Assembly: GCA_964016885.1 (NCBI GenBank)
Contig: OZ024743.1
Location: 151,032,001-151,096,000 of the forward strand
DNA: 64,000 bases
Source of the DNA: Eledone cirrhosa
Taxonomy: Eukaryota
Direction: 5' to 3'
Shown: positions 9,661 through 61,400 of the stretch, piece by piece
Layout of the letters: the number at the start of each line of letters is the position of its first letter
Numbering within the stretch: the stretch's first letter is position 1
The notes under the pieces: generated by a model
Databases searched by the model: none
What the model saw: the letters and a program-made list of their open reading frames with translations, nothing else
Told to the model about the DNA's origin: nothing
Program-made: the position numbers and the translations under genes

Positions 9661-9886
9661 ATCTATCTATTTATAAAACTGTTTATATTGTATTTTGTCT
9701 GATGAAGGCATACCATATTTTTAATATGATATCCCTGAAATATATATAGTGAAATAAATATGGTTTTATAAATATAGTTTCCATTTATTTAATATCGTAA
9801 ATATACTCCAAATACTTGTTGAGTGCTTTTATATCAGTTATAAATATTTACTCGTTGTAACCCAACAATTTAAATAAAACTTTGCA
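9661..9886 (+). mobile_element. PLE 3'-terminal fragment (hammerhead family 1)
   Basis: ~225-bp island repeated at 12239, 12527, 12838, 29846 and 30420; contains a hammerhead fold. Confidence 0.75.
9691..9756 (+). ncRNA. Minimal type I hammerhead ribozyme (family 1)
   Basis: TATTTTGT-CTGATGA-stem II (AGG..CATATT/AATATG..CCT)-GAAA-T-ATAT-A-TA-GTGAAATA. One-bp stem III with palindromic loop, AUA cleavage triplet. Confidence 0.75.
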
Positions 9887-12267
9887 TATATAGTATATAT
9901 ATATATATATTATATATATATATATATATATAGTATATATATATATATAGTATATATATATATATATAGTATATATATATATATAGTATATATATATATA
10001 GTATATATATATATATATAGTATATATATATATAGTATATTTATATATATATAGTATATTTATATATATATAGTATATATATATATATATAGTATATATA
10101 TATATATATATATATAGTATATATATATATATATAGTATATATATATATATATATAGTATATATATATATATAGTATATATATATATAGTATATATATAT
10201 ATATAAAGTATATATAAATATATATAGTATATATATATATATAGTATATATATATATAGAAAATTTATATATATATATATATATATATAGTATATTTATA
10301 TATATATAGTATATATATATAGTATATATATAGTATATTTATATATATATAGTATATATATATAGTATATATATATATATATAGTATATTTATATATATA
10401 TAGTATATGTATATAGTATATATATATATATATATATATAGTATATATATATATATATAGTATATTTATATATATATAGTATATATATATATATATAGTA
10501 TATATATATAGTATATATATATATATATATATATAGTATATATATATATATATATATATAGTATATATATATATATATATATATATATATAGTATATATA
10601 GTATATACATATATATAGTATATACATATATATAGTATATACATATATATAGTATATACATATATATATAGTATATATATATATAGTATATATATATACA
10701 TATATAGTATATATATATATATATATTAGTATATATATATATATATATATATATATATATATATATAGTATATATATATATAGTATATATATATATATAT
10801 ATATATATATATATATATATAGTATATATATATATATATTGTATATATATAGTATATATAGTATATATATAGTATATATATATATATATAGTATATATAT
10901 ATTGCCTATATATATATAGTATATATATATATAGTATATATATATATAGTATATATATATATATATAGTATATATATATATAGTATATATATATAGTATA
11001 TATATATATAGTATATATATATAGTATATATATATATAGTATATATATATATAGTATATATATATATAGTATATATATATATATATATATAGTATATATA
11101 TATATATATAGTATATATATATATATATAGTATATATATATATAGTATATATATATAGTATATATATATAGTATATATATATATAGTATATATATATATT
11201 ATATATATATAGTATATATATATAGTATATATGTATAGTATATATATATATAGTATATATATATATAGTATATATATATATATATATTATATATATATAT
11301 ATATATATATATAGTATATATATATATATATATTATATATATATATATTATATATATATATATATATTGTATATATATATATATATTGTATATATATATA
11401 TATATATATATAGTATATATATATATATATATTATATATATATATATATTATATATATATATATATATTATATATATATATATATATTGTATATATATAT
11501 ATATTATATATATATATATTATATATATACATAGTATATATATATATATTATATATTATATATATATTATATATATACATAGTATATATATATATAGTAT
11601 ATATATAGATATATAGTATATATATTATATATATAGTATATATATTATATATATAGTATATATATTATATATATATATAGTATATATATATATATATTAT
11701 ATATATATATATATAGTATATATATATATATATTATATATATATATATATAGTATATATATATATAGTATATATATATATAGTATATATATATATATAGT
11801 ATATATATATATATATATAGTATATATATATATATATATATATTATATATATATATATATATTATATATATATATATATATATATATATATATATATATA
11901 TATATATATATATATATATTATATATATATATAGTATATATATATATATAGTATATATATATATATAGTATATATATATATATATAGTATATATATATAT
12001 ATAGTATATATAGTATATATATATAGTATATATATATATATATTATATATATATATATATATATTATATATATATATAGAATATATATATATATATAAAT
12101 AGTATATATATATATATATATAAATAGTATATATATATATAAATAGTATATATATATATATATATAGTATATATATATATATATATAGTGTATATATATA
12201 TATATATATATATATAGTATATATATATATATATAGTATCTATCTATTTATAAAACTGTTTATATTG

Positions 12268-12333
12268 TATTTTGTCTGATGAAGGCACACCATATTTTTA
12301 ATATGATATCCCTGAAATATATATAGTGAAATA
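12268..12333 (+). ncRNA. Minimal type I hammerhead ribozyme (family 1), in island 12239-12462
   Basis: CTGATGA at 12276-82, GAAA at 12314-17; near-identical to the 9691 copy. Confidence 0.75.
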
Positions 12334-12651
12334 AATATGGTTTATAAATATAGTTTCCATTTATTTAATATCGTAAATATACTCCAAATACTTGTTGAGT
12401 GCTTTTATATCAGTTATAAATATTTACTCGTTGTAACCCAACAATTTAAATAAAACTTTGCATATATAGTATATATATATATATATATAATATATATATA
12501 TATATTATATATATATATATATTATATGGAAAGTTATATTTAAAATTGTTGGGTTACAACTAGTAAATATTTATAACTGATATAAAAGCACTCGACAAAT
12601 ATTTGGAGTATATTTACAATATTAAATAAATGGTATTTATAAAACCATATT

Positions 12652-12717
12652 TATTTCATTATATATATTTCGGGGATATCATATTAACAATATGCTATGC
12701 CTTCCTCAGACAAAATA
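12652..12717 (-). ncRNA. Minimal hammerhead ribozyme (family 1, CUGAGGA core)
   Basis: TCCTCAG at 12703-09 and TTTC at 12668-71 on the + strand. Confidence 0.75.
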
Positions 12718-12865
12718 CAATATAAACAGTTTTATAGATAAATAGATTCGACATACCGTAATAACACCGACTTGCATTTGAAGAGGTTAAACTGGCAGTG
12801 AAAAAATTTTACACGGTGTTATTACGGTATGTCGAATCTATTTATCTATAAAACTGTTTATATTG

Positions 12866-12931
12866 TATTTTGTCTGAGGAAGGCATAGCATATTGTTAAT
12901 ATGTTATCCCCGAAATATATATAATGAAATA
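12866..12931 (+). ncRNA. Minimal hammerhead ribozyme (family 1, CUGAGGA core)
   Basis: CTGAGGA at 12874-80, GAAA at 12912-15, TATATA-TA, stem I partner ATGAAATA. Confidence 0.75.
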
Positions 12932-59206: not shown

Positions 59207-59310
59207 CTGTCAAATAATTCTGCAGCAAGATACCGAACTTCATCAGAAAGTTTGAATTTTTCACATGTCAAAAATATGAATTCAGCAAAATCACCATATT
59301 TAAAAATACC
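59207..59310 (-). CDS. CNTD1: CNTD1-like coding exon 2 (GIFKYGDFAEFIFLTCEKFKLSDEVRYLAAELFDR)
   Basis: TGCAG acceptor, AG|GTATGT donor, 104 nt, phase 0 to 2. Cyclin-box helix similar to human EFVFLLSEQWCLEKSVSYQAVEILER. Confidence 0.88.
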
Positions 59311-59685
59311 CTGCATTCATTAAAATTATACTTAGTGATTTACACTGAAACTTAAGATGATAATTTATTAATCAGTTTAATGGAAATGTTTAAAGAAACA
59401 TAAATCGTTAAGTTAGTGCTCAGCTATTTATTTCATTCTATCACCATCACACCCACCTCTCCTTCCACCTAACTCTCTGAACTCTGACTTCAAAACCCAC
59501 CAAGGTCAACTTTGCTTTTCATCCTTTCAATCACTCTTTCCCCTTTCCTTCTCTTGAAGAAATCGGGTGTGTTCAGATCTGTAGTGGGAAAAGTGCTTGA
59601 GGCATGCTGTATGCTATTTTGGTGCCTCTACGGCTCCATCAGGAATTTTAGGTCTTTACATACAATTGCAATCACATCAGTGGAT

Positions 59686-60453
59686 ATCATCATCATCATC
59701 GTTTAACGTCCGTGTTCCACGCTTGCATGGGTTTGGACGGGGGTTTTCTCACTTGAGGCAAGAGTGATTGTCTTGCTCGCATAGGACTGTCTGGCGGGTT
59801 TTCTACAGCTGGATGCCCTTCCTAACACCAACCACATTTACAGTGTGGGTCTGGGAGGTTTTTACCGTGTTGCCTACACGGCCACATTACAGCGTGGACT
59901 GTGTGTTTTTTTGTCGTGACACCTACACGATCTCATTTGTTTCGGCCTGGATGTTGTGGCACCAACATAACTTTACATTGAAAGGGGCGGTGTGGATGGG
60001 GTGGGGGTGGTGGGACGGGGGTGTATTTTGTTAGAGATGCCTACTGACTGTAGTAGGTTTTACTTTGTATTTAGGTAAGGCGGGTCTTCTCTATTACTGA
60101 GTACCGCCAAAGGTCTCGGTCCAGTGACATTGTCTTGGAGAGGTGTAAGTGTGTGAGGTCGGAATTTATCAGCTCGTCCCAGGTTTTTCTGGGTTTGCCT
60201 ACTCCGTAGCTACCGTCTATCTTTATTGCCCTGCACTTTGTTATACAGCTGTCGTCTTTCATGCGCATCACGTGACCATACCAACGTAGCCTTCTCTCCA
60301 GTAAACAACATCTGATCCCTCTTATTTCTAATTTTTTCCAAAGTTCGCTTATGCTTTGCCGTTCACGTATGTTACTATTACACATCCAGCGGAGCATGCA
60401 AGCTTCGTTCCTCTCTAGTCTGCGTATATCCTCTGCACACAATGCCCAGGTCT
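59686..60453 (-). mobile_element. 5'-truncated RTE family C copy
   Basis: 123-aa ORF matching the C-terminus of 34087-36048; (GAT)n tail; 5' junction in a short (TA)n. Confidence 0.93.
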
Positions 60454-60469
60454 ATATATATATATATAA

Positions 60470-60635
60470 ACGTGGTTGGTGTTAAGAAGGGCATCCAGCC
60501 GTAGAAAACCTGCCAGACAGTCCTATACGAGCGAGACATGGTCACACGACCAATCTTGCCGCAAGTAGGACAATTCCCATCTAAACCCATGCTACGTGGA
60601 AGATAGACGTTAAATGATGATGATGATGATTATGA
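60470..60635 (+). mobile_element. RTE (family C-related) 3' UTR-only copy, head-to-head with 59686-60453
   Basis: GGTTGGTGTTAAGAAGGGCATCCAGCCGTAGAAAACC...AAACCCATGC..GACGTTAAA(TGA)n. Confidence 0.8.
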
Positions 60636-61028
60636 TATATATATAGATATAGTGAAAACTTGGACGGGAACAAAAACAGAGAGGCAGTACAAACAAAGGT
60701 TAATTAGGTTCACGCTCTTGAGAGTGGGGGGGGATATATATAAAATAATATAAAATAGTTTAGATGAGCTGATAACACAACCATATAAAGGCAAAGAATA
60801 ATTCAAAGCTCAAATGTGATTTTAAAGTCCACAAGATAGGTAAAAGACAAGATGTGCAGACATGTGGTTAGTAAATAATTGTTAGTTATGTTGTTTAATA
60901 GATTCTGAAGAAATCAATACAGTAGAAATGTATTTTCCTATTGTATTGATAGAAACATTTGTAATTATATAATATAATGTAATTTATTTTTGGTTATTTC
61001 TATTCATTTTATTAATATATATATGTCT

Positions 61029-61400
61029 ATGAAAAGATTCACCCCAATGGCTGAGCTCCAGCCTTTTTGACAGCTAGATCCAAACTATGCCATCAGTATT
61101 AGAACAGCAGGAATCTAGCTGAACTTATCAAGGAGTACAGTCCATATATGGGTATGCAGTCAAAGCAAAAAAGAAATTCTGCTTTGAATGTATGCCCATA
61201 TATGGACTGTACGCCTTGATAAGTTTAGCTAGATTCCTGCTGTTCTAATACCGGTCGCTTAGTTCAGATCTAGCTGTCGAAACAGCCGGAGCTCAGCCGT
61301 CAGGGTCCTGAATCTTTTCATATTACCCATTCTACTACCCCAAGTATCGAGTACTCTGGTGGTTTATGGTCTACCTGGTATTTTACCACACCCTATCTGA
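61029..61400. mobile_element. Older palindromic PLE insert (family 5-related) in a short TA tract
   Basis: 61029-61167 is the reverse complement of ~61178-61322; the plus arm continues to 61400 and resembles the 37251/43584 ends. Confidence 0.75.
61211..61306 (+). ncRNA. Type I hammerhead fold with U3-A8 core (UUGAUAA); decayed mirror at 61041-61136
   Basis: ACGCC-TTGATAA-GT..AGCTAGAT...ATCTAGCT.TC-GAAAC-AGCCGGAGCTCAGCC-GTC-AGGGT; several decay mismatches. Confidence 0.6.

Follow-up and report, generated by a model that had tools for sequence, protein, structure and literature searches.

How do inserts from several retroelement families come to share one layout, in which two copies of the same 3' region are joined head to head and only one of them carries a tail? 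The question is raised by 64,000 nt of the 3.0-Gb genome of Eledone cirrhosa (contig OZ024743.1, 151,032,001-151,096,000; hereafter the window), about 28% of which is TA microsatellite. Eight inserts in the window are identified by their sequence features as 5'-truncated, head-to-head stubs of Hydra-clade Penelope-like elements (PLEs). We consider it probable that both 3'-OH ends of a cut in (TA)n prime cDNA on one read-through RNA and that two conserved bulged hairpins determine where inside this RNA copying begins.

In the mechanism that we propose, a dimer of the reverse transcriptase (RT)/endonuclease (EN) would bind hairpins 1 and 2, which lie 60-90 nt apart and 3' of a hammerhead ribozyme, on read-through RNA, and its GIY-YIG endonuclease would cut both (TA)n strands. 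The tail-less arm would start from one target end, primed ~3-5 nt 5' of hairpin 1, and the tailed arm from the other, primed ~3-6 nt 5' of hairpin 2; 1-8 nt of UA pairing would fix the register of each start. The downstream RT would copy through hairpin 1, displacing the first cDNA; both RTs would stop at variable points, and the cDNA 3' ends would be joined head to head via microhomology or filler. The tail would be the spacer between the two starts. We lean, if only slightly, toward the fuller form of this proposal, in which twin cis-acting hairpins 60-90 nt apart load the RT dimer and one RNA is reverse-transcribed twice, from each end of the double-strand cut. PLEs are not known to have an RNase H. 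In the twin priming of L1 elements, both target ends also prime on one RNA, but the arms copy different parts of it; here a single 3' region is the template of both arms, each with a fixed start.

One tailed and one tail-less end

A preliminary description of the window had assigned these eight inserts a single architecture, and each is indeed an inverted repeat with its 3' ends outward and one tailed arm. The arms are 83-100% identical, and (TA)n flanks nearly all insert ends, the left flank of 61029 being only weakly TA. The one-sided tail had been put at ~80-100 nt, and its measured length is 77-89 nt. The families, described as at least four and unrelated, number exactly four (A to D). No DNA similarity was found between A, B, C and D; they are nevertheless not unrelated, since the open reading frames (ORFs) of C and D are 37.5% identical and a tail hairpin is common to all four. 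The inserts, and two solo, non-inverted copies of family A, are as follows.

12527..12972, tailed arm (-), tail-less arm (+): family A inverted insert, 88% arm identity, ~82-nt tail
29846..30548, both strands: family A inverted insert, 89-nt tail, ~340 nt of unique upstream spacer
9661..9885 (+): family A, solo copy with a tail, hammerhead core beginning at 9699; its twin at 12237-12461 is 99% identical
29251..29435, both strands: family B inverted insert, 77-nt tail, degenerate hairpin at 29296-29313 (-)
33385..33571, both strands: family B inverted insert, 77-nt tail, arms 100% identical, hammerhead core at 33441-33463 (+)
37251..38828, both strands: family C inverted insert, 77-nt tail, 3' untranslated region and pseudo-long terminal repeat (pLTR) of a Hydra PLE with a 717-aa ORF
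43584..43720, both strands: family C stub, 78-nt tail, junction within the hammerhead
61029..61400, both strands: older, family C-related inverted insert, 78-nt tail, 83% arm identity
39141..42657, tailed arm 39141-40696 (-), tail-less arm 40697-42657 (+): family D inverted insert, 88-nt tail, arms 99.4% identical

Copies gathered across the genome by pattern and protein searches have the same two ends. Arm ends cluster at two positions, as the preliminary description had anticipated. Among the first 100 listed of 8,325 exact matches to a 31-nt family D motif, close neighbour pairs were divergent in 32 cases and convergent in none. Exactly one tail was found in 31 of 32 inverted D inserts, where ~16 would be expected were the ends independent; 30 pair a tailed with a tail-less end, in a further one (L135 with L137) the pairing spans a tandem, and one (L185) has two tail-less ends. 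All 26 inverted pairs of family A have one tail, part of this set having been found by a tailed query, and 12 of 17 partner arms in family C end at the fixed site. The proposed enrichment in (TA)n also holds: a TA-type flank follows 57 of 61 D long ends, the other four continuing into the element, against a background of 4.1% for TA runs of at least 10 nt in 200 kb from arbitrary places. The asymmetry had been offered as a fixed integration rule. Two fixed ends are what we observe, while the asymmetry itself is the PLE tail that has already been published.

Two arms and their probable template

The arms of 30 D inserts (loci L140 and L135 omitted) were compared for their reach toward the 5' end. 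The tail-less arm extends further in 14, the tailed arm in 6, and the two are equal in 10; in the window insert, the tail-less arm reaches ~500 nt beyond the tailed one. In 14 of the 30, the window's included, each arm holds sequence absent from the other. The arms nevertheless agree at variant positions: at seven sites diagnostic of D subfamilies, 190 of 196 comparisons are concordant against 114 expected, and at three sites in family A 76 of 77 are concordant against 42.5 expected (a fifth A site, which is the arm end, was set aside).

Tabulation of 21 resolved junctions, a check that had been suggested for these inserts, found 1-6 nt of microhomology in 9 and 1-17 nt of filler in 12. The junctions differ from copy to copy in families A, C and D, so the inversion arises at each insertion. 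Two first-strand cDNAs from one RNA are the simplest reading of the arms and their shared variants, and a likely one. With its variable junctions and arm-specific sequence, this picture suggests that the two-ended priming and joining of two cDNAs first proposed for the window is probably right in outline, but both of the rules proposed with it for the start sites are wrong.

A close alternative retains two-ended priming at hairpin-set sites and has each RT of the dimer copy its own RNA, both RNAs coming from one locus. No strand displacement would then be needed, arm concordance would be expected if the transcripts of one locus assemble together, and the D insert with two tail-less ends would be accommodated. 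This arrangement gives no reason for the split between sites 1 and 2 (31/32 in D; 26/26 in A), and we regard it as unlikely.

In a fold-back or self-priming scheme, as described in the accessible text of two earlier accounts (PMC3846280; Craig et al., 2021), a cDNA would snap back at a short palindrome and copy itself, and the tail would come from endonuclease resolution. The 10 equal-armed D inserts, most of which have their junction close to a CATATG palindrome that lies ~70 nt above the hammerhead, fit such a scheme, as do the nearly constant junctions of family B and the variants common to both arms. A simple fold-back cannot, however, make the 14 D inserts in which each arm has private sequence. 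Self-priming may account for part of the short, equal-armed D inserts; as the general route it seems improbable.

Start sites and the bulged hairpin

Each of the four families has its main short end 3-5 nt ahead of one bulged hairpin. This hairpin has a 4-bp stem (RYUC/GARY), a 2-nt bulge on the 3' side that starts with U, and an inner stem of variable sequence. Its positions in the window (hairpin 1) are:

9805..9824 (+), 12590-12609 (-) and 29910-29929 (-): family A
33507..33525 (+): family B
37299..37322 (-), 43633-43656 (-) and 61329-61352 (+): family C
39197..39221 (-): family D

Of 31 tailed families, 20 have hairpin 1 no more than 12 nt from the short end, against 1.9 in shuffles, for a pattern that was fitted post hoc; the 31 were kept from 46 clusters after removing seven simple-repeat or non-element clusters and those lacking a 25-nt tail. 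Alternative base pairs are present at four of the five positions scored across these families. When the frozen pattern was applied to 600 kb of fresh DNA, it was found in three of five new families (0.28 expected). Hydra-type loci in metagenomes were searched with an unanchored pattern fixed beforehand; 46 of 78 had enough upstream DNA, yielding 34 independent upstream regions. The hairpin is present in 20 of these, compared to 0.4 expected and 0 of 34 in the ORF control, and in most cases comes after a short UA-rich stretch. Four of the 34 regions have two hairpins, and 18 have at least two 3' half-motifs, mostly 52-82 nt apart.

The tailed arm had been taken to reach the RNA's 3' end. Tandem copies of families B, C and D instead read past the long end into an ORF (in B, into the start only of an ORF of the C/D type), and the long end must therefore be internal on a read-through RNA. 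In family C, a perfect hairpin 2 follows 3 nt after that end. To judge from their placement in the sequence, hairpins 1 and 2 likely direct the RT to its start on either side of the DNA cut.

The hairpins might instead be RNA processing sites, with two RNA 3' ends made first and each then primed at its end. Processing would give identical fixed distances, and PLE RNAs do undergo it at the hammerhead. The ends in our data shift by several nt in step with UA microhomology, however, and the accessible text on a Poseidon element describes an RT that starts internally on unprocessed RNA (PMC11167929). We find this alternative quite improbable.

The version given by the preliminary description has no structural signal: the RNA 3' end is the start for one target end, and annealing to an internal UA motif provides the start for the other. 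Some UA microhomology does exist at all sites: at the short end it is 2 nt in A, 3 nt in C, from 1 to 5 nt in B and for the most part 3-8 nt in D, and a 5-nt UA run is where 6 of 30 B arms stop. When ends are scored against whichever rare variant matches best, some of those in B and D move closer to the hairpin by 2-5 nt; the anchor hits set aside as unresolved number 23 in A, 3 in B and 5 each in C and D. The 2-3 nt available in A and C are few, and in A 19 of 20 partner arms continue beyond a better, 9-nt UA run upstream, at which no arm ends. Together with the read-through of B, C and D past the long end and the retention of the hairpin across families and organisms, this makes priming selected by UA motifs very unlikely. 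Because the start tracks the hairpin at a near-fixed distance, UA pairing likely only fixes its register.

That the palindromes are fold-back assembly or library artefacts, to which repeat palindromes are prone and which the preliminary description had flagged, has practically no probability: arms diverge by up to 17%, family-specific ends recur genome-wide, and in two runs of raw Illumina reads the B short end passes into TA in 429 and 541 reads and the long end in 316 and 380, although reads from the centre of the B palindrome can be placed at two positions and are no proof of the B junction.

Several observations weigh against the hairpin-directed, two-cDNA mechanism. Hairpin 1 is absent from 11 of the 31 tailed families, mostly short-tailed ones. 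Hairpin 2 is compact and imperfect in family D, where it lies 4-6 nt after the long end and was missed by the frozen pattern; family B has only a 5' half and a plain 4-bp hairpin at that position, and no read-through copy of family A was found in which to look for it, a weak test in so AT-rich a family. As to the ends, D insert L185 has two tail-less ones, 5 of 17 family C partner arms stop before the fixed site, and of 33 single D hits, 11 had an inverted partner by a looser anchor and 22 had none within ~6 kb. As to the arms, the difference in reach, 14 against 6, lacks significance (two-sided binomial, ~0.12), one further A site is not concordant (18 of 24 against 16.1 expected), and concordance would equally be expected had the arms copied sibling RNAs of one locus or undergone gene conversion afterwards. 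An identical junction was found in 28 of 30 family B copies, for a query that contained the junction, and B palindromes may therefore be copied as units. Binding, cutting, priming and displacement are all steps that we infer for these elements. Finally, the accessible text on Poseidon reports no difference in start site between top and bottom strands in vitro (PMC11167929).

Inverted, tailed (TA)n inserts with 28-60 nt tails and no scored hairpin make up clusters 8, 12, 18, 23 and 27-30; these possibly belong to other PLE clades with a different start signal. The window also contains solo or partial copies of three more tailed families, at 28334-28674, at 29499-29681 and near 48931 (-), which occur as inverted inserts elsewhere in the genome (clusters 44, 9 and 39). 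The copy near 48931 (cluster 39) reads through into a compact second hairpin, and in the family of cluster 9 a hammerhead-like core is present in which A replaces U4.

Hydra-clade identity and relation to known elements

Identification of the inserts as PLEs, already made in the preliminary description, is borne out by intact parent ORFs in the genome, with RT plus a GIY-YIG endonuclease at the C terminus: 806 and 808 aa for family D, and 717 aa for family C, in tandems of ~3.5 kb. No ORF was found for family A. The RT and GIY-YIG motifs were assigned by inspection and regular expression; a Pfam scan named no domain in the endonuclease remnant or the full D ORF. Coding remnants and the hammerhead motif of the D insert in the window are:

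40576..41668 (+): frameshifted remnant of a Hydra ORF that has lost its 5' part; RT thumb and linker at 40576-41289, GIY-YIG endonuclease at 41204-41668
40223-40687 (-): mirror copy of this remnant
42563..42624 (+): putative Type I hammerhead motif, family D, with the 31-nt core that has 8,325 exact genomic matches

The intact C and D ORFs have DKT in place of DKG, as do 44 of 45 aligned relatives, and both have a CxCX5C linker, found in 43 of the 45. The GIY-YIG core of each has one cysteine only, and the CCHH motif is absent. In addition, the copies are inserted in (TA)n and form partial tandems, with an inverted 5'-truncated copy and a tail at one end only. The DKT, the linker, the single cysteine, the hammerhead and the (TA)n targets match the Hydra clade as Craig et al. 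define it, a placement made by motifs, since the homologs carry no clade names. Neptune was considered first and rejected on the linker and the DKT; neither the CX2-5CxxC linker nor the CCHH motif of Neptune and Nematis is present. The C and D elements likewise lack the features of Naiad, which has an N-terminal EN and no hammerhead.

A Type I hammerhead appears to lie in the pLTR of these elements. An Rfam cmscan matched nothing but miRNA-like hairpins attributable to chance, with no hammerhead among them, and hammerheads were therefore called by motif and by eye. Both arms of 12527, 29846, 33385 and 39141 have the canonical core (CUGANGA...GAAA), and 29251 has it in its long arm. No such core was found in 37251, 43584 or 61029, to which the description of the inserts as hammerhead-bearing had extended; 43584 keeps only the 3' half of a hammerhead. 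The core in family C mostly has U3...A8 instead of C3...G8 (L061-L090, L301-L317), an apparent compensated pair that we take to be tolerated by the ribozyme, and the 37251 copy is mismatched there.

The Hydra clade of Craig et al. (2021; PMC8557442, bioRxiv 10.1101/2021.04.23.441226), as set out in its accessible text, shares with our elements the DKT, the CxCX5C linker, a C-terminal GIY-YIG without the two inner cysteines, the hammerhead, (TA)n insertion, partial tandems, the inverted 5'-truncated copy and the one-end tail. That tail is 30-40 bp, whereas ours is 77-89 nt (25-197 nt in other tailed families of the fetched loci), and the unit is generally <3 kb, compared to ~3.5 kb here. The words hairpin and stem-loop do not occur in that text, which ascribes the tail to EN resolution. 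pLTR hammerheads, including close pairs on opposite strands, are also described in the accessible part of PMC4209133.

The closest biochemical parallel is Poseidon_Ac, a PLE of another clade (Frangieh et al., 2024; PMC11167929). According to the accessible text, both strands are cut and extended in vitro, a dimer is predicted, and two internal starts bound the tail; a start lies in or at a stem-loop and has little homology to the target, as here. The starts fall inside the ORF in Poseidon_Ac and 50-75 nt before it in our elements, and that text gives neither a shared hairpin consensus nor a model for head-to-head joining. The Penelope of Adineta vaga, in the accessible account, also has a head-to-head inverted pLTR and palindromes at the junction, with an optional 31-bp tail; the explanation there, in which an antisense template primes itself, is at odds with the 14 of 30 D inserts discussed above (PMC3846280).

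Compared to animal non-LTR retrozymes, as far as the available text describes them (bioRxiv 10.64898/2026.07.22.740005), the window inserts are pLTR stubs and not tandem arrays. In one locus (L328; G000:C9:23834800-23837000), family B does form a 195-nt hammerhead tandem array bounded by the two ends known from its inserts, in two inverted arms, one stopping at the long site and one at the short. It also occurs in ORF-linked copies (L329-L331).

In the accessible texts, then, the inverted copy, the one-sided tail and the (TA)n bias are already published (PMC8557442; PMC3846280), as are two internal RT starts bounding the tail (PMC11167929). What we add is the conserved twin hairpin, together with counts that favour one RNA read twice. 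A description of the hairpin was not found in the literature searched, a search whose coverage excluded most subscription journals and the figures and GenBank supplement of PMC11167929. The choice of start, the inverted copy and the one-sided tail are questions raised in the PLE papers themselves. With intact natural ORFs, and with an RNA signal that is conserved, can be moved and keeps a fixed distance to each end, start choice is open to simple mutagenesis. If the mechanism is true, one rule would give both the tail and the head-to-head layout, insertion ends would be predictable from sequence, and one could tell which non-coding RNAs can be mobilised in trans.

PLEs are the closest relatives of telomerase RT. 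A multi-copy composite (L319, L321, L324, L325, L332, L334, L335; e.g., G000:C1:126622000-126625600) has a B tail followed by a (TG)n-like repeat instead of the usual (TA)n. Of its 10-14 differences from the window B, 8-10 are A>G or T>C, and it looks like an RNA-edited read-through transcript mobilised by the hairpin-bearing end of another family.

Other sequences share the (TA)n of the window. Copies and fragments of AP-endonuclease/RT long interspersed elements (LINEs; PF14529, PF00078) lie in it at 34087-36893 (-), 31225-32184, 2350-4700 and other places. Kilobase (TA)n arrays at 8111-14500, 21875-29251, 30544-31241 and 42656-44183 have single G interruptions in one orientation and locally varying units, for which slippage is the plain reading.

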